Below, piece after piece: positions 16 to 12,667 of a DNA stretch of 12,706 bases. Origin of the DNA: an uncultured bacterium (GTDB taxonomy: Bacteria; Abyssobacteria; SURF-5); contig CAZEBC010000122.1 of NCBI GenBank assembly GCA_964510165.1, positions 1 through 12,706 on the forward strand, given 5' to 3'. Positions within the stretch are counted from its first letter, which is position 1, and every line of letters starts with the position of its first letter. The notes under the pieces are model-generated. The model made no database searches. It saw only the letters and a list, made by a program, of their open reading frames with translations, and was not told the DNA's origin. A program made the translations under genes and the position numbers.

Positions 16-44
16 TTGACAGATACTGTTTCTTGGGATAAAAT
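16..44 (+). promoter_or_regulatory. sigma70-type promoter P1
   Basis: TTGACA (16-21), 17-bp spacer, TAAAAT (39-44): perfect -35 and 5/6 -10 in an AT-rich intergenic region. Confidence 0.75.
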
Positions 45-63
45 ATTAACCTGCTGATTATAT

Positions 64-103
64 GCGGGACGCTCTCCTTTCCTGTGTGTTCCGCTATTTT
101 CTT
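64..103 (+). terminator. Intrinsic-terminator-like hairpin downstream of P1 (possible 3' end of a ~50-nt RNA)
   Basis: GCGGGACGC (64-72) pairs with GTGTTCCGC (86-94): 9 bp including two G-U pairs, a 13-nt pyrimidine-rich loop, then TATTTTCTT (95-103). The G-U pairs only form on the + strand. Confidence 0.45.
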
Positions 104-130
104 GACATCTGGCAAAGAGGTAAGTAAAAT
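102..130 (+). promoter_or_regulatory. sigma70-type promoter P2 for the ketosynthase/kinase operon
   Basis: TTGACA (102-107), 17-bp spacer, TAAAAT (125-130). Same hexamers as P1, 130 nt upstream of the GTG at 261. Confidence 0.8.
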
Positions 131-260: not shown

Positions 261-1508
261 GTGGATAGGCGTTGCGTCGTCACAGGACTCGGTGTTGTTT
301 CGTCAGTCGGAATCGGCAAGGAAGCCTTCTGGGACTCGCTCACTCACGGCAGGTCCGGCATTGCCCGCATTACCTATTTCGATACCTCGAAACTGCCCGT
401 GCATCATGCGGGCGAGGTGAAAGGTTTCAATGCCGCGGACTATGTTGACGACCTCCGCTTGGAGATGACCGGCCGCTACGTCCATTTCGCCATCGCAGCC
501 ACCAAGATGGCGCTTCAAGACGCCGGCATCGAGCCGGACAAGTTTGAGAAGTCGCGCCTCGCTATGTTCGGCGGCACCACTGCCGCCTCTGTCGACGCAT
601 ACGAAAAACATCTCGGCGGCGCAATCAAAGACGATCCCTTCAATGCCCCGCCCTACGCATTCGCCTCAGTCACGGTGCACGCCGCTGTGGGTGAAGCGGC
701 ACAAACAACGAGCCTGTTCGATTCCTCAACCACGATTTCCACTCATTGCACCTCCGGCGTCAACGCAATCGGCGCCGGTCTCAAAGAGATCCGAAGCGGG
801 CGGAGAGACATTGTGGTCGCCGGCGCCACGGAAAGCACGCTTTCCTATTATGCCTTCATTGCCTATATATTGGCGGGGCTGCTAGTGCCGGATGATGGCA
901 TCGTTCCTGAAAAAATCATGCGGCCCTTTGACAAGAACCGACGGGGAGGAGTTGTCGCGGAGGGGGCGGCTTTCGTAGTGCTCGAGGAGTTGGAGCATGC
1001 CCTGGCACGAGGAGCGCGCATATACGGAGAGGTTGCGGGACACGGATATAAGGACAGGTTCCAAGGCCCAAAGGCGACCCAGCGCACGATGGCTGACGCG
1101 ATGCAGGCAGCCATGGCCGACGCGCGCATATCGCCGGCCCAAGTCGAGTATGTTCTGGCAAATGGAAGCTCTACTGTCGTTCAAGATAAGATGGAAACGA
1201 GGGCGCTCAAGGAAATATTCGGCGCACATGCATATCGCATCCCCATAAGCGCGATAAAATCGATGATCGGCATCCCCAATTCCGCCATAGGACCAATGCA
1301 ATTAATCGCCGCGCTTCTTTCCTTCCAAACCGATATCATCCCTCCCACCATTAATTACGAAACCCCCGACCCCGAGTGCGACCTTGATTACGTCCCGAAC
1401 AGCGCCCGCTTGAACCATGTGAACGTGGCGATCATCAATAACCATGGCATGGATGGCGCCTGTGCAGCATTGATTGCAAAACGATACCAGAGCAACACTC
1501 ACGGATAG
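261..1508 (+). CDS. Beta-ketoacyl-ACP synthase family protein (FabF/KAS II fold), catalytically degenerate: Cys retained, both His lost
   Basis: 415 aa, GTG start after a purine-rich RBS (GGGAGAAGGGG). Family motifs: RCVVTGLGVVS, THCTSG (Cys163), RPFDKNR..EGA..VLEELEHALARGARIYGEV, IKSMIG, IIPPTINYETPDPECDLDYVPN. The canonical NAHGTST reads LANGSST and KSMxGH reads KSMIGI, so fabF is not assigned. Confidence 0.92.
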   Translation: MDRRCVVTGLGVVSSVGIGKEAFWDSLTHGRSGIARITYFDTSKLPVHHAGEVKGFNAADYVDDLRLEMTGRYVHFAIAATKMALQDAGIEPDKFEKSRLAMFGGTTAASVDAYEKHLGGAIKDDPFNAPPYAFASVTVHAAVGEAAQTTSLFDSSTTISTHCTSGVNAIGAGLKEIRSGRRDIVVAGATESTLSYYAFIAYILAGLLVPDDGIVPEKIMRPFDKNRRGGVVAEGAAFVVLEELEHALARGARIYGEVAGHGYKDRFQGPKATQRTMADAMQAAMADARISPAQVEYVLANGSSTVVQDKMETRALKEIFGAHAYRIPISAIKSMIGIPNSAIGPMQLIAALLSFQTDIIPPTINYETPDPECDLDYVPNSARLNHVNVAIINNHGMDGACAALIAKRYQSNTHG

Positions 1509-1571
1509 ATAACAAACCCCGGTCTTGCGTGAGGAACCGGCAAGGACTGAGCCCCTGCCGCAGAGCGCCCA

Positions 1572-4121
1572 ATGGAATTAAGATCTCTGAGCATCCTCGT
1601 TAGCACGCTGCTAGCCTTCATCCTTGGGACATATGTCTTCGCCAAGAACCCCAAGAGGATCATCAATATTTCCTTCCTCGCCTTGCTCTACAGCAGCGGC
1701 GCATGGGCTCTTTCTCTGTTCGTGCTAAGCATTGGCACTCGGTACGAGGTGCTCAAATTCGCCGGCCATATGGCGTTCTCAACGGGATCGCTCATGGCAT
1801 GTCATTTCCTCCTCTTTGCCTATGTATTCCCCGAGAAAAGCGAAGAATTCCCGTCCCTGCGAACGTTGCTACTCATCTATGTGCCCACCGCACTTGTTGT
1901 GGCTGCGGGCTTCACCCCACTCGTGATGAAGGACATCACATATGTCAACTCCTCTGTGCGCCCCGTATATGGAAAGGGTATCTTTTTTGTATTGATTTAT
2001 GACACCGCTTATTCCACAGCCGGCCTTTACTTGCTCGCTCGAAAATACCTGAGCCGGCCGGGAGGCTTCGAACGGGCTCAGCTCAAATACATGCTGTGGG
2101 GAATGTTGCTCACCGTCGTCGGAATTGTTGCATTCGCGCTGCTCTTGCCGCTTGTCGGCAACGCCGAATACTCGAGTCCGTTCACCGCGGTCTTGATCAT
2201 GCTCGCCACGGGTGCCATCTCTTACGCCATCGTGCGGCATCGGCTCATGGACCTCGGGGTGGTGTTCAGAAACGCCTTGATCTATGTTATCATGGTCACC
2301 GCGCTCAGCGTGGCCGTCATCCTGCTTCTGCTGATGATTATGCCGGTCTTGCGTCTGGATTGGCGCGACGGCACGTTTCTCGCCGTTGCGCTCGCCGCTC
2401 TCCTTGTGTACCCCGTGCGCCACGGCGTCGAAGTAGTCGTGGACAGATACTTCTTCCGCGGCCGCTATAATTACCAGGCGGCGCTCACCGAGTTCAGTTC
2501 CTCCATGACCAGAATCCTCGACCTCGAGGACCTTCAGAACAGGATCGTCCATGAGGTTGCGTCCATCCTGCAGGTGAAAACTGCGGCCCTGCTGCTCTAC
2601 GAACCGAACGAACAAACATACACAGTCCGGGCTTCTCTGCCCGCAAGCCTCAAGGATTTGCACCACGGCATCCCCGCCTCCAGCCCCGTCTCCGAACGAA
2701 TCAACAAGGAGCGTTCTTTGCTGGTTAAGGAAGAGATCAAACGCATGCTGCCCCGCTCCGAATATGAGCCGCTCAGGCCCGATTTCGAGCGAATCGAGGC
2801 GGAAGTCTTCATCCCCCTCATCTATCGAGGTGAGCTTATCGGTCTGCTCACGCTCGGAGAGAAATGCTCCACCGACATCTATTCCAGCGAGGACCTCAAC
2901 CTGCTCGTGACCCTCGGCAATCAGGCCGCAGTGGCCCTCGAAAACGCGCTGCTGCACTATACGGTCACCATGCTGAAGAACCATAACGACAACATCCTGA
3001 AATACATGAGCAGCGGCGTCATCGCCATCGACCGCGAACAGGTCATAAATACGTGCAATGAGAAGGCGCGTGAGGTCCTCAAACTCGCCCCCGCTGGCGT
3101 GATAAACAAGAAGATCGACGTGCTGCCGCCGCTCCTGCGCTCAATGCTCGCCGACACCCTCAACGGAAGAACGCGCTTCTCCAACCAGGACGTCCAGATA
3201 CTCACCGGCGATGTCACCACTTCGTACCTGAGCGCAAGCACCTCCTTGATAAGAGATGAAAGGGGCGACGTCATCGGAGCCTTGCTCGTGTTCAACGACC
3301 TCACCGACATCAAACGCATCGAAAGCGAGATGTGGCGCGCCGACAAGCTCGCCTCGCTCGGAACCCTCGCCGCCGGCATGGCCCACGAAATAAAAAACCC
3401 ACTCGTTTCCATCAAGACCTTCGCCCAGCTTCTCCCAAGCAAGTACGAGGACAAAGACTTCCGCGACACATTTTCCTCCATCACCGTCGATGAGGTCGAA
3501 CGCATAAACACCATTGTCGAAAAACTCCTCGAGTTCGCGCGCCCCTCCGCCCCCACCTTCGGACAGGTCGACGTCATCGAGGTCATTGACGAGGTCTTGC
3601 TCCTCCTCAGTTCCGAAGTCGTCAAACTGGGAATCACCGTGACAAAGAACTACGAAGTGTCCTCCGCCCCGATTGTCGGAGACAAGGGGCAACTCAAACA
3701 GGCAATGCTCAATCTCTGCCTCAACGCCATGCAGGCCATTGACGGAACGGGAAGAGCCGGAGACCTCACGATCAGCGTCGGCTTCAGAAAGAGCAGATAC
3801 CGCCGTTTCGACGGAATCGGCCAGGACCAGGTCGCACAGATGTTTTACGGCGCCGAACTCGTCGCCTCCACCGACGACGCCGAGACCCTCCTCATCAAGG
3901 TCCGCGACACGGGCAAGGGAATCAGCCGCGAAAACCTCCCCAGAATCTTCGACCCCTTCTTCACCACAAAGGAAAAAGGCCTCGGCCTCGGCCTCGCCGT
4001 CGTTCATGGTATAATCAAGGACCATTCGGGCAATATCACCGTGGACAGCAAGAAAAACGTGGGTACCGAGTTCACCATCTCGCTGCCCGTCACCCAATTC
4101 TTCGCCAAGGAAAGGGTGTAG
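1572..4121 (+). CDS. Membrane sensor histidine kinase HK1: HisKA_7TM-type N-terminal region (~9 TM) - GAF - PAS - HisKA - HATPase_c
   Basis: 849 aa with about nine hydrophobic helices and a YAIVRHRLMD motif. GAF (IPLIYRGELIGLLTLG..NQAAVALENA), PAS (MSSGVIAID..CNEKA..LLVFNDLT), H-box MAHEIKNPL (His605), N-box NLCLNAMQA, DTGKGI, FDPFFTTK, GLGLGL. Confidence 0.95.
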   Translation: MELRSLSILVSTLLAFILGTYVFAKNPKRIINISFLALLYSSGAWALSLFVLSIGTRYEVLKFAGHMAFSTGSLMACHFLLFAYVFPEKSEEFPSLRTLLLIYVPTALVVAAGFTPLVMKDITYVNSSVRPVYGKGIFFVLIYDTAYSTAGLYLLARKYLSRPGGFERAQLKYMLWGMLLTVVGIVAFALLLPLVGNAEYSSPFTAVLIMLATGAISYAIVRHRLMDLGVVFRNALIYVIMVTALSVAVILLLLMIMPVLRLDWRDGTFLAVALAALLVYPVRHGVEVVVDRYFFRGRYNYQAALTEFSSSMTRILDLEDLQNRIVHEVASILQVKTAALLLYEPNEQTYTVRASLPASLKDLHHGIPASSPVSERINKERSLLVKEEIKRMLPRSEYEPLRPDFERIEAEVFIPLIYRGELIGLLTLGEKCSTDIYSSEDLNLLVTLGNQAAVALENALLHYTVTMLKNHNDNILKYMSSGVIAIDREQVINTCNEKAREVLKLAPAGVINKKIDVLPPLLRSMLADTLNGRTRFSNQDVQILTGDVTTSYLSASTSLIRDERGDVIGALLVFNDLTDIKRIESEMWRADKLASLGTLAAGMAHEIKNPLVSIKTFAQLLPSKYEDKDFRDTFSSITVDEVERINTIVEKLLEFARPSAPTFGQVDVIEVIDEVLLLLSSEVVKLGITVTKNYEVSSAPIVGDKGQLKQAMLNLCLNAMQAIDGTGRAGDLTISVGFRKSRYRRFDGIGQDQVAQMFYGAELVASTDDAETLLIKVRDTGKGISRENLPRIFDPFFTTKEKGLGLGLAVVHGIIKDHSGNITVDSKKNVGTEFTISLPVTQFFAKERV

Positions 4122-4122
4122 C

Positions 4123-6141
4123 ATGGAAATCATAGTCGTTGCGTCAAGTGAAAATAGCGTGCAAGATTCCTTCCGCGTCCTCTTCGGAGACGAACACATG
4201 CTCGTCCCCACACGCACGCTCCCCCAGTTGCTCAACGCCCTCGTCGAACATCCGGTTGACCTCGTCGTGCTGGACGAGTTCCTCGAGAACACCGACTGTC
4301 TCACCGTCTTTCAGAGAATCCGCTCGCTCGCCCCCGAGCTTACCTGCATCCTCCTCACCCTCCAGACCAATTCGGAGACGGCCCGCCAGATGCGGGCAAA
4401 GGGCGTCTACGACGTCGTCGCCAAACCATTCGACAAGGAGGCTCTCGCCTCCTCCGTGACGAGGGCGGTCGAGCGCGCGCAACTGCTCCAGAAACTCGCC
4501 GCAGCCAGACGCAGCCTCGACGGGAAAATCGCGCAGCCCGACTCCGCCCTCTTCGCAACCGACCCGGCCAAAACCCACCGACGCGAGATGCTCGACTCAC
4601 TCAGAAAATTTCTCAGGGCTGCATCCGATGCCTTCGCGCCGGAACGCCTCTACTCCCTCGTCCTGGATGCCGTCGTCGAAATGTTCGCCATCAACAAGGC
4701 GGCTCTGCTCCTCTTCAACGAAGAAGCCCAGCGCATGACGGTCAAGGCCGCCGTCGGGCTTGACTCCGCCAGCCTCACTCAGTTTCGCGTCGCGCCCTGC
4801 CTCGGCCTCGTCTCGTGGCTGAAACGACACGACCAGATACTGAACTGCGACGACCCTGACATTCGCATCAACTCCGAACAGATGATCCCGATAAAGAAGG
4901 AACTCGAACTGTTGCAGGCGAGAATCTGCGTCCCCCTCGCCGCAAGGGGGCGCCTGATCGGAATCCTCACCCTCGGGAAGAAGGTTACCGGCAAGCGCCT
5001 CTCCGAAGACGAACTCGAGTTCCTCTATCTGCTCTCACAGCAGATTGCCGCCATCATCGAGAATGCCCGACAACACCGCGCCGTCTTCGTCCAAAAACAG
5101 AATTTTGAGGAAATCCTGCGCGGCGTCACCTCCGGACTCATGGCAACCGACTCTGACGGACGATTGACCGTGTTCAACAAGGCCGCCGAACAAATACTCG
5201 GGCTGAAGGCCTCCGAAGTGATCGGACAGAACGTGCAGCGCACCGGTTCCATCTTCGCCGATATTGTATACCGCACCCTCCGCGAGGGCAGGTCCTTCTG
5301 CCGACACGAGGTCATGGATCCCGCAACCAAGTCCCTTCTCGGAATAAGCTCCTCGCACCTCACCGACAGCGGCGGCAACCCCATCGGCGCAGTCGTCCTC
5401 TTCACCGACCTCTCCACCGTCAAACGGGCCGGCGCCGGAGTCGCCGACGAAGAGGCCTGGCAGCGTTGCGCCCTGTGTATGGCGCAGGAAATTAAGACTC
5501 CGCTCGTCGCGATTCGCACTTTCACTCAACTTTTCCCCGAAAGCTATGCGGACGAGAAGTTCCGCAACGAGTTCTCGGCCATAGCCCTTAAGGAGATCGA
5601 CAAGCTCGATTCCGCCGTAGAAAGACTGCTCCGATTCTCCCACCCGCTCGAAGTAAAGCCGCAGCCCGGCGATATCAATACGCTGGTCGCGGAAATCATC
5701 GACTCCGTGGCCGAGGCCGCCGCTAAACAGGGCGTCAAGGTCAAGAAGGATTTCGGAGTATCCAACGGTGTCCTTTCGTTTGACAGAACCCTGCTGAGCG
5801 AAGCGCTCATCCAGATAATCAACAATGCCATCGAGGCAATGCCCCAGGGAGGCACTCTCTCCGTGTCCACGAGCCTGAGGAATAACACCCGGCCAAGCCA
5901 GAACGGCATGCCGCCCGGCGCCTCCGTAGAAATCATCGTCTCAGACACGGGACCGGGAATCACCCCCGAAGAAATGGCCAACCTCTTTAAGCCCTTCCAT
6001 ACCACCAAGGTCAAGGGAATGGGGCTCGGTCTCGCAACATCCAGACGCATCGTCAGAGGACACAACGGCGAGGTCATGATCTCCAGCGACCCCGGCAAGG
6101 GAACTGTTGTAAGGGTTGTACTACCGCAAGGAACATCGTAA
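4123..6141 (+). CDS. Cytoplasmic histidine-kinase-like protein HK2: atypical REC - GAF - PAS - HisKA(H->Q) - HATPase_c, probable pseudokinase
   Basis: 672 aa; the ATG is 1 nt after the HK1 stop. REC (DLVVLD, LLT, AKPF), GAF (VPLAARGRLIGILTLG), PAS (TSGLMATD..FNKAAEQILG). H-box reads MAQEIKTPL. N (INNAIEA), G1 (DTGPGI), F (FKPFHTTK) and G2 (GMGLGL) boxes are intact. Confidence 0.93.
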   Translation: MEIIVVASSENSVQDSFRVLFGDEHMLVPTRTLPQLLNALVEHPVDLVVLDEFLENTDCLTVFQRIRSLAPELTCILLTLQTNSETARQMRAKGVYDVVAKPFDKEALASSVTRAVERAQLLQKLAAARRSLDGKIAQPDSALFATDPAKTHRREMLDSLRKFLRAASDAFAPERLYSLVLDAVVEMFAINKAALLLFNEEAQRMTVKAAVGLDSASLTQFRVAPCLGLVSWLKRHDQILNCDDPDIRINSEQMIPIKKELELLQARICVPLAARGRLIGILTLGKKVTGKRLSEDELEFLYLLSQQIAAIIENARQHRAVFVQKQNFEEILRGVTSGLMATDSDGRLTVFNKAAEQILGLKASEVIGQNVQRTGSIFADIVYRTLREGRSFCRHEVMDPATKSLLGISSSHLTDSGGNPIGAVVLFTDLSTVKRAGAGVADEEAWQRCALCMAQEIKTPLVAIRTFTQLFPESYADEKFRNEFSAIALKEIDKLDSAVERLLRFSHPLEVKPQPGDINTLVAEIIDSVAEAAAKQGVKVKKDFGVSNGVLSFDRTLLSEALIQIINNAIEAMPQGGTLSVSTSLRNNTRPSQNGMPPGASVEIIVSDTGPGITPEEMANLFKPFHTTKVKGMGLGLATSRRIVRGHNGEVMISSDPGKGTVVRVVLPQGTS

Positions 6142-6142
6142 C

Positions 6143-7738
6143 ATGCACAAGATTCTCGTTGTCGATGACGAACTCAGCGTCCGCGAATCCATCCGCATCA
6201 TCTTGAAAGACAGCTATGACGTGATCCTGATGGATTCCGGCGAAGCCGCAATCGAATATCTCAAATTCAACGACGTCGCCCTCGTGTTCCTGGACATCCT
6301 CATGCCCGGCATCTCGGGACTCGAAACGCTCAAGGTCATCAAAGCTCGCAAGAGCCCTCCCGAGGTCGTCATCGTCACGGCCACGCGCACTGTCAAGAAC
6401 GCCGTCGATGCCATGAAACACGGCGCCTTCGAGTATGTCACCAAACCCTTCGATGTCGATGAACTCAAGCTCATCGCCGAACGCGGAATCGAGAACCGGC
6501 GCCTTGTCCAGGAATGCGCGTCGCTCAAGGCTCAGATGGAGGAGGAGAAAAACCGCTTCTACAGGGAACTCGAGGGAAAAGTCCGCGAACGTACCCTCGA
6601 GCTCGAAGAGACAAACAAGAAGCTCCGTGAAACCCACGAGCAGCTTGTCCGCTCCGAAAAGCTCGCGTCACTTGGAGAACTCGTGGCCGGAGTCGCCCAC
6701 GAGCTCAACAACAAGCTTCTCCCCGTCCTCGCATATGCCCAACTCCTCAAAGAACAGAAATTCCCCGACAACATCCTGCGCTACATCGACACCATCGAGC
6801 GCTCAGCCTCCGGCGCCGCTTCGGTCGTCAGTTCCCTCCTTAACTTCGCCCGACCCTCCAGCACCACCCGCTATCCCGTCGACCTCAACGCCACCATGCG
6901 CGAAACCCTCGCGCTTCTCGACTACAAGATTAAGGCCGGCAATGTCAAGGTCGCTGTCCAACTTGACGACCGTTTACCGCTCACCATGGCCGACGAGAAA
7001 CAGATAGCACAAGTGTTCCTCAATATCATAAATAACGCCTTCCAGGCCATGGAACCTCGCGGAGGAAACCTGACAATCCGCTCCGCAAAAGTCGGCAACC
7101 AGATGGAATTCTCCATCTCCGACACCGGATGCGGCATCCCTGAGGAGCACCTCATTAAGATATTCGACCCCTTCTTCTCCACCAAGGGATCGGGAGGAAC
7201 CGGCCTCGGACTCAGTGTCTCGCACGGACTCATAAAGGCTCATCAGGGCGAGATCAATGTGAAAAGCAAGAAGGGCGAGGGCACTACCTTCATAATCAAA
7301 CTGCCCATAACCAAGACCGTCAAGAAGGAGGACGCCAAGGTCGAAACCGCTCCTGCGGAGACCGACAAGAAAAGGCGCCGGGTGCTCGTGGCCGAGGACG
7401 ATCCGGAATGCAGGTCCGTCATCAGTGACATATTGCGAAACGACCATATGGTCACCGCAGTGGGCAACGGCGAGGAAGCCCTCACCAAACTCGCCAAAGA
7501 AACCTACGACCTCCTCATCGTCGACTGCAAGATGCCCGGCTTCACCGGCGTCGAACTCTATAAGTGGCTGCTCAAAAATAAATCCGAGCTGCAAAGGAAA
7601 GTCGTGTTCATCACCGGGGTCTTCTTCGTTCCCGAAATACGCTCATTCATCGAGAGCACCGGATGCCCTTATATCGTCAAGCCGTTTGCGCTGGAAGACC
7701 TCAAACATACGGTCAATATGGCCCTGGCCAACTCCTGA
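6143..7738 (+). CDS. Hybrid histidine kinase/response regulator HK3: REC - coiled coil - HisKA - HATPase_c - REC
   Basis: Start placed at the ATG at 6143 (MHKILVVDDE), 1 nt after the HK2 stop and downstream of AAGGA. Canonical REC (VDDE, FLDILMPG, TKPF), H-box VAHELNNKL, NIINNAFQA, DTGCGI, FDPFFSTK, GTGLGL. C-terminal REC (AEDD, VDCKMPG, ITG, VKPF). Confidence 0.95.
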   Translation: MHKILVVDDELSVRESIRIILKDSYDVILMDSGEAAIEYLKFNDVALVFLDILMPGISGLETLKVIKARKSPPEVVIVTATRTVKNAVDAMKHGAFEYVTKPFDVDELKLIAERGIENRRLVQECASLKAQMEEEKNRFYRELEGKVRERTLELEETNKKLRETHEQLVRSEKLASLGELVAGVAHELNNKLLPVLAYAQLLKEQKFPDNILRYIDTIERSASGAASVVSSLLNFARPSSTTRYPVDLNATMRETLALLDYKIKAGNVKVAVQLDDRLPLTMADEKQIAQVFLNIINNAFQAMEPRGGNLTIRSAKVGNQMEFSISDTGCGIPEEHLIKIFDPFFSTKGSGGTGLGLSVSHGLIKAHQGEINVKSKKGEGTTFIIKLPITKTVKKEDAKVETAPAETDKKRRRVLVAEDDPECRSVISDILRNDHMVTAVGNGEEALTKLAKETYDLLIVDCKMPGFTGVELYKWLLKNKSELQRKVVFITGVFFVPEIRSFIESTGCPYIVKPFALEDLKHTVNMALANS

Positions 7739-7796
7739 CGCCCAAACTGGCGGCCAAGCCGTTTCGACATGCGGTTGTGCGAATCTATGGATTCTT

Positions 7797-7878
7797 GTAG
7801 GCGTAGGCCTTGCGCCTGCCCAATTGCTGACAATCGCAACCCCTTGTAAGGGCGCCACGCCCAGGCGTGGTTGCGCCC
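7797..7878 (+). repeat. Pair of REP-like GTAG/GTAA-headed palindromes
   Basis: CTT-GTAG-GCGTAGGCCTTGCGCCTGCCC (7797-7821) and CTT-GTAA-GGGCGCCACGCCCAGGCGTGGTTGCGCCC (7846-7878). Each is a tetranucleotide head plus a GC-rich hairpin ending in GCCC, in the same orientation, 49 bp apart. Confidence 0.5.
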
Positions 7879-7921
7879 GTATTAAGTTACATTAAGCTTC
7901 GATCCGCTGACAGGTTCTCGG

Positions 7922-10255
7922 ATGCATACAGCTTATCTCCCAGCAAGACTGGCGGGCAGGTATCCCAAGATCATACTTGTCTTCTCGTTCCTGCTGACGT
8001 TGCTGCTTCTCGCCGGCATACCGAAACTCAAGATGCGCCCCTTCTTCGAGGGCGACTTGCCGGCGCACGACCCCATCATACGCGCCAACGAACACTACAC
8101 CGCGTATTTCGGCTCCGATGAAAAAGCCTATCTCGCGCTGGTGAGCGACAACATCTATAACCCTTCCACCCTTGCGAAAATCACCGCCATCACCGAGGAA
8201 CTCAACCAGCTCGACGACGTCCTCACGGAGCAAACGCTCAGCCTCGCGACGGCAAGAAAGGTGAAATGGCGTGAGTGGGGCCTCGACATCCGAAAGTATC
8301 TGACCCCGCTTCCGACCACCCCCGAGGAAATAGAGCGCCTCCGTCAGGACGTCCGCCTCGACAAGGACATCCATGGCCGGCTCGTCTCGAACGATGAAAA
8401 GGCCGCGCTCTTCGCAATCAAGCTCGACCCGGGATATGACCATCGCAAACTCCATTCCTCGCTCTACTCGATCGCCCAAAAGTATTCCGGCCCCGAACAC
8501 ATCTATCCCTTCGGACACCAGATCATGAACGAGGAAGCCAACCAGGGCATGCGGCACGACCTGATGGTGCTCGGGCCGGCGGCCCTCCTATCAATGGGAA
8601 TAGGCATCTTCATCTTCTTCCGCTCCGTCAGGGTTACGCTCGGCCCGGTACTGGTCATCATTATGAGCATCATTTGGACTTTCGGGTTGATGCGCTGGCT
8701 TGGATTGCCCATATCGGTCCTCAGCTCCTCAATGCCTCCAATGCTCATCGCTATAGGCAGTTCCTATGCAATCCACGTGCTCTATGGCTGCAAGGAAGCC
8801 TCTTCCGGGATGACCCCAAAAGAACGAGTGGCCGAGGGAGTGGCAAGGACTACCTCTCCCATACTGCTCGCCGCCCTGAACTCCATGGTCGGCTTCGCAA
8901 CACTGGTCACCTTCAAGGTCCTTTCCATACGGGAATTCGGGCCATGCGTCGCCTTGGGCGTGGCGCTCGCCGCAGTCTTTTCTTTGATCGTCCTACCCGC
9001 AATTTTGACGCTGCAGAAGAGTTTTCTGGAGGATTCGCGGCGCAGTCGAATATGGTCATTCGACGCCGTCCTCGCCGACTTCGCTGACGCCCTCACCAGA
9101 CACAAGTACCTCGTCGTCGGAATTGTCTTGCTTCTTCTGGTCGTCTCTGCGGCGGGCATCATGAGACTCAAGGTCGGCGTTGTGCCCGAGGAAATATTCC
9201 CGCCCGGCCACCGGGCCCGGCACACCATCTCCGTGTTCACCCGGTATTTCCAGGGACCCTACAATCTAAACGTGATGATCACCGCAGAGCGCCCCGACGG
9301 ACTTAAGTCCCCCGAAGCGCTTAAGGAGATAGAGAAATTCCAGAAGTTTGCGGAAGAACTCCCCCGCGTGAAGTATGCCGCCTCTATCGTGGATATCATC
9401 AAGAGGATGAACCGCATACTAAACGAGGATGACCCGGCCTATGACACTCTCCCGGACAGCGAGGAGATGATCGCTCAACTCCTGCTCCTCCATTCCATCA
9501 CGCAGGAGCCCGTCCAGTTCAGCAGCCTGATAGACTACGATTTCCAGCGGTGCAAGGTAAGCATCTCAACCACTACAATCGACAGCATCCAACTGGAAGA
9601 CATCTACTATCGCCTGCGGCAGTATGCGGACGAAAACATGGGGGCGGGACTAAAAGCCGATTTCGGCGGGCGAAGCATGGTCTGGATTGCCCAGAACCAT
9701 TACATCATCCGCGGAAAGATAATCAACATTATCACGAGCACCTTCGTCATCTGGGCAATCTGTGCTCTCGCCTTCCGCTCCATAGGCGTGGGACTCATAA
9801 GCATTGTCCCCCTGTCGTTCGCGACTATCATGACATTCGGCGTGATGGGATGGTTCGGCATCAGGCTCGATATGACCACTGCCGTGCTTACCGGCATCTC
9901 GGTCGGCATAGGACTCGATTTCGCCATTTACTTTATTGCGAGACTCAAACGCGCCATGCTCAACGCCGACCGCATCGACGAAGCCCTGCGCGCTGCAATG
10001 GGCACCGCAGGAATGGCGATTGTGTTCGACGCCACCGTAAATATGCTCGGCTTCTCCGTGGTCATGCTCTCAGGTTTCACCCCGGCCAGACGACTCGGAT
10101 TCCTCATATGCTTCAACATGCTGGTATGCCTGGCGCTGACCCTGATCATCATCCCGGTGATATTTGCCCTTGTTCCGTTCCCTCTCGCACACATGCGTAA
10201 GGAGGCTCTCTTGCTTCAAAATGAGGAAAGACCGGCGCCCGCCTCAGTCGAATAA
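7922..10255 (+). CDS. MMPL/RND-superfamily transporter (putative lipid or hydrophobic-molecule exporter)
   Basis: 777 aa with two internal repeats, each an N-terminal TM, a large extracytoplasmic loop and about five TMs. Motifs IAIGSSYAIHV and ISVGIGLDFAIYF, SMVGFATL..IREFG, MLGFSVVMLSGFTP..LG. Confidence 0.92.
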   Translation: MHTAYLPARLAGRYPKIILVFSFLLTLLLLAGIPKLKMRPFFEGDLPAHDPIIRANEHYTAYFGSDEKAYLALVSDNIYNPSTLAKITAITEELNQLDDVLTEQTLSLATARKVKWREWGLDIRKYLTPLPTTPEEIERLRQDVRLDKDIHGRLVSNDEKAALFAIKLDPGYDHRKLHSSLYSIAQKYSGPEHIYPFGHQIMNEEANQGMRHDLMVLGPAALLSMGIGIFIFFRSVRVTLGPVLVIIMSIIWTFGLMRWLGLPISVLSSSMPPMLIAIGSSYAIHVLYGCKEASSGMTPKERVAEGVARTTSPILLAALNSMVGFATLVTFKVLSIREFGPCVALGVALAAVFSLIVLPAILTLQKSFLEDSRRSRIWSFDAVLADFADALTRHKYLVVGIVLLLLVVSAAGIMRLKVGVVPEEIFPPGHRARHTISVFTRYFQGPYNLNVMITAERPDGLKSPEALKEIEKFQKFAEELPRVKYAASIVDIIKRMNRILNEDDPAYDTLPDSEEMIAQLLLLHSITQEPVQFSSLIDYDFQRCKVSISTTTIDSIQLEDIYYRLRQYADENMGAGLKADFGGRSMVWIAQNHYIIRGKIINIITSTFVIWAICALAFRSIGVGLISIVPLSFATIMTFGVMGWFGIRLDMTTAVLTGISVGIGLDFAIYFIARLKRAMLNADRIDEALRAAMGTAGMAIVFDATVNMLGFSVVMLSGFTPARRLGFLICFNMLVCLALTLIIIPVIFALVPFPLAHMRKEALLLQNEERPAPASVE

Positions 10256-10353: not shown

Positions 10354-11523
10354 TCAGGCCTTCCACACACCCGGTATCGGCGTCTTGCAGTATGCGCAGT
10401 GACCGCCGTCAATCGCAACCTCAAGAATCCTGAAACCCAGACGCTGGATGACCGGCTTCTTGCAATGCGCACAGTACGTCGATTCTCCCTCGTGGCCCGG
10501 CACGTTGCCCACATAGGCGTAATTCAGCCCCTTCTCCATCGCGATCTCCCGAGCCCGCTCAAGCGTGGAGACCGGCGTCGGCGGCAGGTTCTTGATCTTG
10601 TAGGTCGGATGAAACCGCGTGAAATGAATGGGCACGTCGGGGCCGAGTTCATCATGAACCCACGCGCACATCTGCTGGATTTCCTCCTCGCCGTCATTCA
10701 GTGTCGGAATCATGAGCACGACGAGCTCGTTCCACATCTTCTCCCGTCTCAGCACCTTGAGCGTATCGAGCACAGGCCGGAGTTCCCCGCTGCAAATCTC
10801 TTTGTAAAACTTGTCCGTGAATGCCTTCAGGTCCACCTTGACGGCGCTCAAGTGTTCGCATAGCCCGACCATCGGCTTTTCCTCGATATACCCGTTCGAG
10901 ATCATCACGCTCTTCACGCCCTGCTCCCGCGCAAGCTTCGCGGTATCATACATGTATTCGTAAAAAACCACAGGCTCGCTGTAAGTGAACGCAATCGACT
11001 CGATCCCGTTTGACTTTGCCTGCCTGACCACCTCTTCCGGCGGAAAATTAATGCTCCTCACCTGCTCCGGCCTGAACTGCGAGATTTCCCAGTTCTGACA
11101 AAACTTGCACTCGATATTGCAGCCCGCAGTCGCTATCGAGAGCGCCTTTGCGCCCGGCAGAAAATGGAACAACGGCTTCTTCTCGATAGGGTCCACGTTC
11201 ATCGAGCAAACCCGTCCATAAACGAGAGTGCGATACGAAGCGTCGATGTTCTCGCGCACGCCGCAATAGCCGCGCTCCTTTATGGCGACCTTGCATGCCC
11301 TCGGGCAAATCTCGCATTCAATCCGCCCTTCCTCCAGACGCTTGTAATGCATGGCCTCTCGCACAAACGGCTCAGGCCCGACTTCATCCCTCGCCAACGC
11401 CTCGCCAGGGACGCTCGCACCCTCTTCTCTGCCGAGCCACCAATAGGCGGCAAGCCCCCCGCCGACACCTGCCGCCGCCGCTCCCGTCTTCACCAGAAAA
11501 TCTCTTCGAAACATCCCGCTCAT
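10354..11523 (-). CDS. amrS: AmmeMemoRadiSam system radical SAM enzyme with an N-terminal twin-arginine signal/anchor
   Basis: 389 aa. CEICPRAC..GYCGVREN, DPIEKKPLFHFLPG, radical SAM motif GCNIECKFCQNWEISQ, FTYSEP, IHFTRFHP.YK..LPPTP, YVGNVPG..TYCAHC..CAYC. The N-terminus FRRDFLVK is followed by a hydrophobic stretch. The start could alternatively be 11514. Confidence 0.93.
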   Translation of the reverse strand: MSGMFRRDFLVKTGAAAAGVGGGLAAYWWLGREEGASVPGEALARDEVGPEPFVREAMHYKRLEEGRIECEICPRACKVAIKERGYCGVRENIDASYRTLVYGRVCSMNVDPIEKKPLFHFLPGAKALSIATAGCNIECKFCQNWEISQFRPEQVRSINFPPEEVVRQAKSNGIESIAFTYSEPVVFYEYMYDTAKLAREQGVKSVMISNGYIEEKPMVGLCEHLSAVKVDLKAFTDKFYKEICSGELRPVLDTLKVLRREKMWNELVVLMIPTLNDGEEEIQQMCAWVHDELGPDVPIHFTRFHPTYKIKNLPPTPVSTLERAREIAMEKGLNYAYVGNVPGHEGESTYCAHCKKPVIQRLGFRILEVAIDGGHCAYCKTPIPGVWKA

Positions 11524-11538: not shown

Positions 11539-12585
11539 CTATGTGATGACAACCCTTGAAATCCTCTGCATATTGCCGACCCCCAGCCCTCGTCGCTCCG
11601 CCGTGCCGATGTGCTTAGGCTCGCGGCCGACATCCTTCAAAGGAGGCATCCCCGCCTCCTTCCTCTTGCGCTCAATCATATCCCAACCCACACCGTCCAC
11701 GGCCACGGGATCGCGCCCGACAATCAGCGCCCCTGCCGGCCACGCCCATTGAGGCCTGGGAGCCGGGCCGCCGTGATACTGCCCCTTCAGGCCGTCACAA
11801 ATGACGAGCCGCAGCTTTTTCGCCACGAAAGGATGCGCGCACAAGTCGGCCACGTATGGATCGCAATTGTTATCATGATACTTGTTCGGATTGTGGATGG
11901 CCCCATAGAAATTCTTCATCCCGAGCGATACACCCGCAAGGTCGTGATCCTTCAAGACCGGCACGTTTATGAGCGCTGTGCACATCCGCGAGATGATCCG
12001 GCTGAAACAGGAGCCCACCTCGCCCGAAAATTCTATCGAACTCTCATAGCCGACCCCCGCCGAGTCTGTGGCCAATACCCTCGCGCCGCTCAAACCTGAC
12101 ATCCTGAATCCTGCCGACATGAGATCGTGCTCCGTGCGGTCCCACACGACGATTCTTTCCCTGGAAATCCCAGCCGCCGCCAGGCCGTCAACGATCGCGG
12201 TCACAAGCTCCGGATGAGACGACAGCCCGACACCCGCGAGACAGTTGACCTTGATCCCCACGGTGTCGCCGGGCAAGAACATGCTTTTCCACCCCGACCG
12301 CGCGTCGGGTTTGCCCGTCACTGCGGCAATGGATTCATTCAGCAGCGCGCCAACCTCGGAAATCTTCACCTTGCCGTCCCTCTCGGCAGCCGATTCCCGG
12401 CTCGCCACGACCACCTTCGCCTCCGAACCTGAAGCCGCGAAGACAGAAACCGGCGCGCCTTCGCTGTCCGCCGCTCCCGCCCTTGTCTCAGCGGTCGCCA
12501 GCCCGCTCTGTCCCAACATCACCGACGCCGGGACCGATGCAACGTACTCAAGAAATCGCCGACGCGTGTGTCTTAACTTGCTCAT
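11539..12585 (-). CDS. DUF362 domain protein with a Tat signal peptide
   Basis: Start placed at the ATG at 12585 (MSKLRHTRRRFLEYV..GLATA). DUF362-type motifs GDTVGIKVN, SHPELV, INVPVLKDH..AGVSLGMKN.YG, D...GQY.GGP, GRDPVAVD. It ends 15 nt before amrS, consistent with an operon. Confidence 0.88.
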   Translation of the reverse strand: MSKLRHTRRRFLEYVASVPASVMLGQSGLATAETRAGAADSEGAPVSVFAASGSEAKVVVASRESAAERDGKVKISEVGALLNESIAAVTGKPDARSGWKSMFLPGDTVGIKVNCLAGVGLSSHPELVTAIVDGLAAAGISRERIVVWDRTEHDLMSAGFRMSGLSGARVLATDSAGVGYESSIEFSGEVGSCFSRIISRMCTALINVPVLKDHDLAGVSLGMKNFYGAIHNPNKYHDNNCDPYVADLCAHPFVAKKLRLVICDGLKGQYHGGPAPRPQWAWPAGALIVGRDPVAVDGVGWDMIERKRKEAGMPPLKDVGREPKHIGTAERRGLGVGNMQRISRVVIT

Positions 12586-12667
12586 ACGGGAAGATGTCCT
12601 AGCGGGATGCTGTCTATGGACGAATGCTGCATGAAAGAAACACTTTTCTCGGGGACTTCGCACCACT

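Follow-up and report, generated by a model that had tools for sequence, protein, structure and literature searches.

A candidate lipid-signal operon of Abyssobacteria that pairs an altered ketosynthase with a seven-transmembrane sensor kinase

Contig CAZEBC010000122.1 (C122; 12,706 bp), which in its entirety is the window analysed here, belongs to a draft genome (4.17 Mb, 97% complete) of an uncultured SURF-5 bacterium of the Abyssobacteria. Most of it is occupied by five genes on one strand, encoding a ketosynthase (KS)-like protein of the FabF fold (KS*), a histidine kinase with a seven-transmembrane-helix (7TM) sensor (HK1), a kinase-like protein related to it (PK2), a soluble hybrid kinase (HK3) and an MMPL transporter (Table 1). 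We propose, with a probability of roughly 0.58, that this operon produces a lipid-type signal of its own, exports it and responds to it, with a synthase, a receptor, a relay and an exporter encoded side by side. Gene content and order, the active-site changes of KS*, a predicted sensor fold resembling G protein-coupled receptors (GPCRs) and the way in which KS* and the sensor vary together between genomes are shown below.

The operon and its proteins

The Pfam domains of the five products are, in gene order, KS; HisKA_7TM-GAF-PAS-HisKA-HATPase; REC-GAF-PAS-HisKA-HATPase; REC-HisKA-HATPase-REC; and MMPL. The earlier note on this DNA, made from the letters alone, had described lipid-handling folds at both ends with three kinases between them, in co-oriented genes separated by 63, 1, 1 and 183 bp, and we find the same frames, gaps and folds. 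The order KS*-HK1-PK2-HK3-MMPL is kept in 7/7 complete loci of the same family, with differing flanks, and an eighth locus (genome G002) is broken at a contig end, its HK3-MMPL part sitting on another contig. KS* orthologues (58–75% identity) are present in 8/9 same-family genomes, a record of Ca. Abyssobacteria (L023) bears the same five genes with a KS 60% identical, and 10/11 genomes of a phylum sample contain one HK1-type gene, each adjoining a KS. In genome G004 (92% complete) neither KS* nor HK1 was detected and no MMPL match exceeded 37% identity, which represents either joint loss of the three or an assembly gap. Gaps within the operon are 0–108 bp in 7 relatives, leaving therefore no room for a peptide or acyl carrier protein (ACP) gene, and the five genes are probably transcribed together. 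Two promoters are predicted ahead of KS*; among 7 relatives a matching pair precedes the KS in L094, L096 and L099 and a single site in L095, and the remaining three either have a radical S-adenosylmethionine (SAM) gene directly upstream (two) or end at a contig edge (one).

KS* has the fold of FabF (AF2 model, pLDDT 91.8; TM 0.94 to B. subtilis FabF) and scores below the cut-off of TIGR03150 (338 bits; cut-off 493.75). The search with a KS alignment scored 8000 candidate proteins of 227–751 aa, fusion proteins being taken from a representative search, and placed KS* in a clade of 49 proteins (57–100% identity) set apart from the next matches, on a long stem (branch 1.0). We mapped its residues on E. 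coli FabF, with the functional residues as named in the available part of bioRxiv 10.1101/644518. Cys163 is retained in all 49 members, while FabF His303 is replaced by Asn301 (47 Asn, 1 Ser, 1 His) and His340 by Ile338 (49/49). Also retained are Lys335 (47 Lys, 2 Arg), Asp311 and Asn396. Lost are the GFGG gate (with its Gly401 replaced by Asp in 48/49), loop 2, Asp265/His268/Thr270 and nearly all of the basic residues that dock ACP: of six such positions the clade keeps a mean of 0.27, compared to means of 5.31 for 32 housekeeping FabFs, 5.0 for 15 signalling KS whose triad is intact and 2.5 for the 34 sister KS. A new set of residues has been gained, consisting of His140 (49/49; Asn in FabF, His in 28/34 sisters), Asp112 (47/49), Asn340 (47/49), Asp398 (48/49) and His395 (35/49), the last at a position which we take to be the site of the thiolases' second catalytic Cys. 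With both histidines gone, and with them the gating loops and the basic patch that docks ACP, KS* would be unable to elongate chains in the FabF manner and, judged by its residues, is not a FabF. The genome encodes just one other KS, a normal FabF, which belongs to a fab cluster of a separate contig. The label of pseudo-ketosynthase, used in the earlier note, is thus apt for chain elongation and goes too far beyond it, in view of the invariant Cys163. Chain length factors of type II polyketide synthases (PKS) have no catalytic Cys and are encoded beside an active KS; we rejected this identity for KS* because its Cys is kept and because no second KS, the active neighbour that the note had considered, is found in any of 9 family loci.

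Is KS* an enzyme at all? It could instead be a non-catalytic acyl-binding co-sensor, sampling acyl-CoA or acyl-ACP via Cys163, docking at the cytoplasm-facing side of the HK1 membrane domain and reporting its own loading, or else it could present, modify or remove a lipid cue from outside. The loss of both histidines, gate and docking patch with retention of Cys, Lys335 and Asp311, as well as the long stem of the clade, would suit such a role. We nevertheless regard it as unlikely, for reasons that come mostly from the KS genes of other phyla discussed below.

The membrane part of HK1 consists of HisKA_7TM (PF16927; aa 1–225, score 49.1, above the Pfam gathering threshold of 28.6, with Atlas matches in agreement) and two further hydrophobic helices. 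A model of aa 1–298 (pLDDT 87.1) matches over aa 1–225 a GABA-B receptor with Z 17.3 and a root-mean-square deviation of 3.2 Å over 219 residues; nearly all 50 rows of structure matches are GPCRs or GPCR-like designs, and Foldseek agrees, with lower scores. Helical bundles may reach Z ~13 from their arrangement alone, and a shared fold does not establish function. The sensor domain of HK1 is, on the evidence of the model, GPCR-like in fold. A resemblance of 7TM kinases to GPCRs has been recognised already (PMC13581589, in its available part), HisKA_7TM is mentioned merely as a listed sensor domain in the available parts of PMC5847659 and PMC6944256, and we found no ligand for the family in the open literature. 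The model contains no periplasmic domain, only a β-hairpin at aa 119–133, which agrees with the previous description of HK1 as sensing through intramembrane helices, except that cytoplasmic GAF and PAS domains are present as well. His605 and the ATP boxes of HK1 are intact in 8/8 orthologues.

PK2 is ~30% identical to the cytoplasmic part of HK1 and has Gln455 at the phospho-His position. Its ATP-binding boxes are intact and its receiver is atypical, with Asp51 kept and the acidic pocket lost. Gln replaces the phospho-His in 7/8 orthologues and His is kept in one (L098), so that the term pseudokinase, applied earlier, fits the protein of the window and is not universal. In distant counterparts this site is occupied by Gln, Asp or His and the ATP boxes are often decayed, so that loss of kinase activity in PK2-type proteins appears to be a recurring trend. 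From the properties of HisKA motifs and pseudokinases, PK2 may act as a partner of HK1 or as a phosphatase. HK3 keeps Asp51 in its first receiver, His186 in HisKA and Asp461 in the last receiver in 8/8 orthologues. Another PK2-like protein, with 29% identity and a degenerate H-box, is encoded at L102:1356-4186 (genome G000, contig C235), preceded by a 263-aa gene with no Pfam match and no counterpart in 5/5 relatives. At loci including L050, L112, L122 and L160, a PK2-like protein has Asp in place of the His, and its ATP boxes are decayed.

The transporter matches PF03176 in two stretches (123.5; gathering threshold 20.5) and is HAE3/HpnN-like, its best model being TIGR00921 (HAE3), at a score of 224, below the curated cut-off of 351.9. 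In 8/8 relatives its orthologues (57–62% identical) follow HK3 after 5–6 bp, and the 183 bp seen only in the window are therefore a local insertion. Hairpins had been thought to separate MMPL from the other genes; this is not borne out, as the gap folds no better than shuffled sequences (z −0.73) and no terminator was called in any of the four intergenic gaps, so that a terminator or structured RNA was rejected here. The 35-nt palindrome within the gap has two more copies (~83%) in the genome.

Table 1. Features of the window (positions on the forward strand)
Feature	Position	Strand	Remarks
KS*, FabF-fold protein, 415 aa	261..1508	+	Pfam, alignment, structure model
HK1, HisKA_7TM, two more hydrophobic helices, GAF, PAS, intact kinase; 849 aa	1572..4121	+	
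PK2, REC-GAF-PAS-HisKA-HATPase, 672 aa	4123..6141	+	
HK3, soluble hybrid kinase REC-HisKA-HATPase-REC, 531 aa	6143..7738	+	ATG start
MMPL / HAE3-like resistance-nodulation-division (RND) transporter, 777 aa	7922..10255	+	
Variable specificity block (KS* and HK1 membrane part to ~aa 300)	261..2470	+	
Distal sigma-70-like promoter, predicted	16..44	+	11/12 consensus
Proximal sigma-70-like promoter, predicted	102..130	+	11/12 consensus
183-bp local insertion	7739..7921	.	palindrome ~7844-7879, no terminator call

Two minus-strand genes converge on the operon, at 10354-11523 and 11539-12666 of the window, encoding an AmmeMemoRadiSam radical SAM protein (TIGR04337, above cut-off) and a DUF362 protein. 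The AmmeMemoRadiSam gene also flanks MMPL in L097, L098, L099 and L101.

Joint variation of KS* and the sensor

In a comparison of 8 operons of the family, KS* and the 7TM part of HK1 each separate genomes G000, G001 and G005 from G009, G006, G007, G008 and G003 with a bootstrap of 100. The corresponding branch has a length of 0.35 in the joint KS+7TM alignment and of ~0.000002 when the same split is forced on cytoplasmic or housekeeping alignments. Measured in 60-residue windows, the identity within groups exceeds that between groups by 5–22 points in KS* and by 4–16 points in HK1 aa 1–300, while in the remainder, which starts at the GAF domain and takes in PK2, HK3 and MMPL, the difference stays between −3 and +3, which places the boundary of the variable block at about aa 300 of HK1, at the GAF domain. 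In approximately unbiased (AU) tests (5000 replicates) MMPL rejects the KS/7TM split (p 0.03) and the KS+7TM alignment rejects the cytoplasmic topology (p 1e-5). The type-diagnostic sites of the KS, at 104-148, 200-204, 264-280 and 396-401, lie in the surroundings of the acyl pocket and the entry loop.

A sharper and independent case comes from Desulfobacterota, where loci L025 and L055 are nearly alike in their flanks (upstream RluA 92.5%, next regulator 92.6% identity) and in the kinase cytoplasm (83%), in contrast to 54% in the KS and 33% in the 7TM part; the KS triad is Cys/His/Gln in one and an intact Cys/His/His in the other. Two further pairs, L186/L195 and L184/L187, behave alike (GAF 72%, 7TM 24–29%). 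KS* thus appears, from sequence comparison, to be inherited and swapped as one block with HK1's membrane part, in a pherotype-like pattern. The joint variation favours a synthase and its receptor over a generic relay of fatty-acid flux, the other possibility named in the earlier note, and together with co-occurrence it strengthens that note's reading of a synthase/sensor-receptor-exporter module. The co-sensor remains compatible with it, as an interface between KS and 7TM domain would make both co-vary.

The operon could also concern a structural membrane lipid, made or remodelled by KS* and MMPL, possibly with housekeeping FabF or a radical SAM enzyme acting in trans, with the kinases monitoring the cell's own membrane and no signal passing between cells. 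The HAE3/HpnN-like character of the transporter would agree with this, and so would an intramembrane 7TM pocket able to read a membrane lipid and the B12 radical SAM gene, which lies directly upstream in 3/8 loci of the family and at a different place in the remaining genomes checked. However, a housekeeping lipid is not likely to come in types that are swapped between genomes whose flanking proteins are 92% alike, G004 seems to be without KS*, HK1 and MMPL orthologues together, and KS* has no partner KS beside it. We therefore consider this explanation rather improbable.

The three B12 radical SAM genes directly before KS* belong to type 2 loci (L097:10942-12396, L100:3541-5028 and L101:13085-14533), with TIGR04428 and TIGR04072 as best models, both below cut-off. 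We rejected the gene as a fixed member of the operon: it is located elsewhere in G000, G001 and G005 and is also found in G004, which is without the operon, and can therefore be accessory at most.

Recurrence in other phyla

Searching with KS* alone, we found that HK1-like kinases are immediately preceded by divergent FabF-like genes in records bearing the names Desulfobacteria, Thermodesulfobacteriota, Desulfarculaceae, Desulfobacterales, Rokubacteria and 'Chlamydiota', and in those of two unclassified bacteria; in an Omnitrophota record the FabF-like gene lies 1.7 kb before the kinase. A PK2-like gene is also present at several of these loci. The core that recurs in several other phyla is a KS, a 7TM kinase and a degenerate REC-GAF-PAS kinase. 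The reverse search used a 7TM+GAF profile containing no KS sequence, seeded with 12 KS-adjacent kinases, and among the best 75 of >582 metagenome loci 38 are preceded by a co-oriented KS, which lies within 300 bp in 25 of them; two pairs among the 38 are near-duplicates. The other 37 comprise 22 loci of a PDZ-type kinase subfamily, none of which has a KS (0/22), 6 with less than 600 bp upstream and 9 preceded by other genes. Among 151 genomes sampled from the phylum of G041, 28 have this kinase type, and a KS is found ≤1.5 kb upstream at 13/30 kinase loci, or 10/27 without the three seeds. As the genomes hold only 0–6 KS matches each, such adjacency is far above chance, although the counts include kin and the loci are not independent. 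The genes do co-occur in other genomes, then, both in the family and in other phyla, as the earlier note had wished to see checked.

Could the genes be neighbours merely by the shared ancestry of one small family? The full five-gene set is seen only within one family of ~10 genomes. However, the flanking genes vary between loci, and KS-7TM adjacency extends to several phyla and to half of the metagenome loci just described. For KS, HK1 and PK2 this explanation is contradicted, and only for MMPL could it apply; for the operon as a whole it is extremely improbable.

In a tree of 196 KS, the kinase-adjacent ones are separated from housekeeping FabF and fall among sequences that resemble type II PKS. 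One of their clades (support 0.98) contains intact triads together with fusions to PocR-GGDEF and PilZ, and another (support 0.95) shows a gradation that starts with Cys/His/Gln or His, passes Cys/His/Asn and arrives at Cys/Asn/Ile; outside both are one adjacent KS (L085) and two fusions. These trees bear on the co-sensor discussed above. In its favour, related KS domains are fused to regulatory domains, with 7 of 21 scanned proteins carrying PocR-GGDEF, 4 PocR, 2 PilZ and 1 REC (plus L174). Against it, most of the fused domains keep Cys/His/His and therefore look like regulated enzymes, a KS with intact triad fills the same slot before the kinase in clade A (15 loci), and one locus swaps intact and altered KS, which counts against a general co-sensor rule and not against such a role in the KS* clade. 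Tailoring enzymes and FadL at sister loci suggest, moreover, a molecule that is made and travels. Over 56 loci, the accessory genes are B12 radical SAM (9, in three groups of 4, 3 and 2), short-chain dehydrogenase/reductase (SDR; 7), FadL (4), ICMT/PEMT (3) and class I methyltransferase (2). Such lipid-related genes (SDR, FadL, B12 radical SAM, ICMT/PEMT), and other small-molecule enzymes before 7TM kinases, favour the proposed signal system.

Several arrangements at these loci are of interest in their own right. The fused proteins have the FabF-like domain behind PocR-GGDEF (P0154, P0164, P0165, P0187, P0203, P0217, P0228), PocR (P0150, P0163, P0196, P0218), PilZ (P0157, P0210) or REC (P0186 and L174:821-2506), mostly with intact triads. 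Two tandem 7TM kinases follow the KS at many loci (L050, L112, L122, L160 and others). In Desulfobacterota (L026:8585-10405, L055:4468-6384) the gene after the kinase encodes an unusual fusion protein, REC-sigma54 AAA+-HisKA. Where a 7TM kinase is not accompanied by a KS, other enzymes are encoded in front of it, among them a BioF/Kbl-fold pyridoxal-phosphate enzyme, methyltransferases and a radical SAM protein with a GNAT protein (L164:6709-7971, L146:250-1146, L110:4475-7998, L169:3401-5032). The uniform PDZ-membrane-GAF-PAS kinases (L143, L148, L150 and 19 more) are preceded by a conserved pair of ~575-aa genes.

Proposed mechanism and relation to known systems

How might such an operon work? 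We propose that KS* would be acylated on Cys163, probably from acyl-CoA, since its ACP-docking surface is gone. It would then pass the chain to an acceptor without decarboxylation, by acyl transfer or head-to-head condensation, perhaps using the newly conserved His, Asp and Asn residues in the handover. MMPL would take the product out of the inner membrane, and the 7TM domain of HK1 would bind it and switch autophosphorylation at His605. PK2, the His-less relative of the HK1 cytoplasmic part, would tune HK1 as partner or phosphatase, and HK3 would pass phosphate on to a regulator whose gene lies outside the operon. The core as found in other phyla is followed by sigma-54 activators or HD-domain receivers at its end. 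The different KS*/7TM types would represent different signal dialects.

Several observations weigh against this proposal. The losses in KS*, of both histidines, the GFGG gate, Asp265/His268/Thr270 and the docking basics, also fit a non-catalytic protein. No ACP, ligase or tailoring enzyme is found among the operon's genes, and the product therefore cannot be named; a DNA-binding domain is likewise absent from all five genes, leaving the operon without a DNA-binding output. MMPL is not part of the cross-phylum core, occurring at the 56 KS/7TM loci only in this family, so that its link to the other genes, which the earlier note had taken for the weakest, is weak outside the family and tight inside it, where MMPL is also missing together with KS* and HK1 in G004. 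The two-type grouping was drawn after the identities had been seen, and the 49-member KS tree has a range of several subtypes, not two clean types. Neither of the star-like sets, cytoplasmic (p 0.12) and housekeeping (p 0.12), rejects the split in the AU test, and joint variation would also be expected if KS* contacts the sensor or from the linkage of adjacent genes. The seeding of the reverse search with KS-adjacent kinases and its restriction to the best loci point the same way.

Known systems provide parallels for individual features of the operon. In Ralstonia, phcB-phcS-phcR-phcQ combine in one operon a synthase of a fatty-acid-derived signal, a membrane kinase and soluble receiver/kinase proteins (PMC8578825, available part). 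The likeness extends to the order, with the enzyme first, then the membrane kinase and then receiver-kinase proteins without a DNA-binding domain. PhcB, however, is a SAM methyltransferase, whereas the window has no methyltransferase among its five genes, places a FabF-fold protein first, and adds a HisKA_7TM-GAF-PAS sensor, a His-less kinase and a trailing MMPL. In the Photorhabdus systems PpyS/PluR and DarABC/PauR a stand-alone ketosynthase joins acyl chains into a quorum signal (PMC7154725 and PMC4578411, available parts). PpyS resembles FabH, its triad being Cys-His-Asn and its base a Glu, and the receptors are cytoplasmic LuxR solos; KS* differs from PpyS, DarB and OleA in having FabF-type best models, a Cys/Asn/Ile triad and a membrane kinase as its partner. 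Enzymes of the PpyS/DarB/OleA kind condense chains without decarboxylation, using a base supplied by the partner subunit; in KS*, His140 is a candidate for such a base.

For the joint variation the closest parallels are comQXP of Bacillus and agr of Staphylococcus, in which the signal-making gene and the sensor domain vary as one block that ends inside the kinase, after its sensor. Their signals are ribosomal peptides, in contrast to the relatives of the window operon, whose short gaps (≤108 bp) contain no precursor gene. In comQXP, comQ is divided into polymorphic types that depart from the pattern of the housekeeping genes (PMC4408185, available part). FabF (KAS II) shares with KS* the fold, Cys163, Lys335, Asp311 and Asn396, and differs by its two histidines, GFGG gate, loop 2 and ACP-docking residues. 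PrsK of the PrsK/PrsR (PEP-CTERM) system is a membrane kinase to which HK1 bears a weak likeness (TIGR02916 score 118.7; cut-off 300); its stimulus is not established, and the available part of PMC1569441 mentions no ketosynthase alongside it. The operon misses a defining feature of each of Phc, PpyS/DarB, comQXP, FabF, chain length factors and PrsK, which upholds the earlier view that the combination is not a named system. The synthase-receptor operon is known as a layout and its pair of families is undescribed in the open literature: in the main texts of open-access papers we found no account that pairs a FabF-type KS with a 7TM kinase.

Tentatively, and at slightly worse than even odds, we extend the proposal to a widespread lipid-signal language of uncultured bacteria, in which a branch of FabF would have moved away from fatty-acid synthesis and would make dialect-specific ligands for GPCR-fold histidine kinases. 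In the family studied here this would have been accompanied by stepwise loss of the histidines and of ACP docking, a new His/Asp/Asn set, a new thiolase-fold chemistry and a dedicated MMPL exporter. A KS/7TM pair that is swapped as a unit offers a direct route to the ligand of the sensor. If our proposal is true, it would provide the first ligand class for HisKA_7TM sensors, a lipid-signal system in lineages that have no cultured representative and, possibly, a reaction that is new to the FabF fold.

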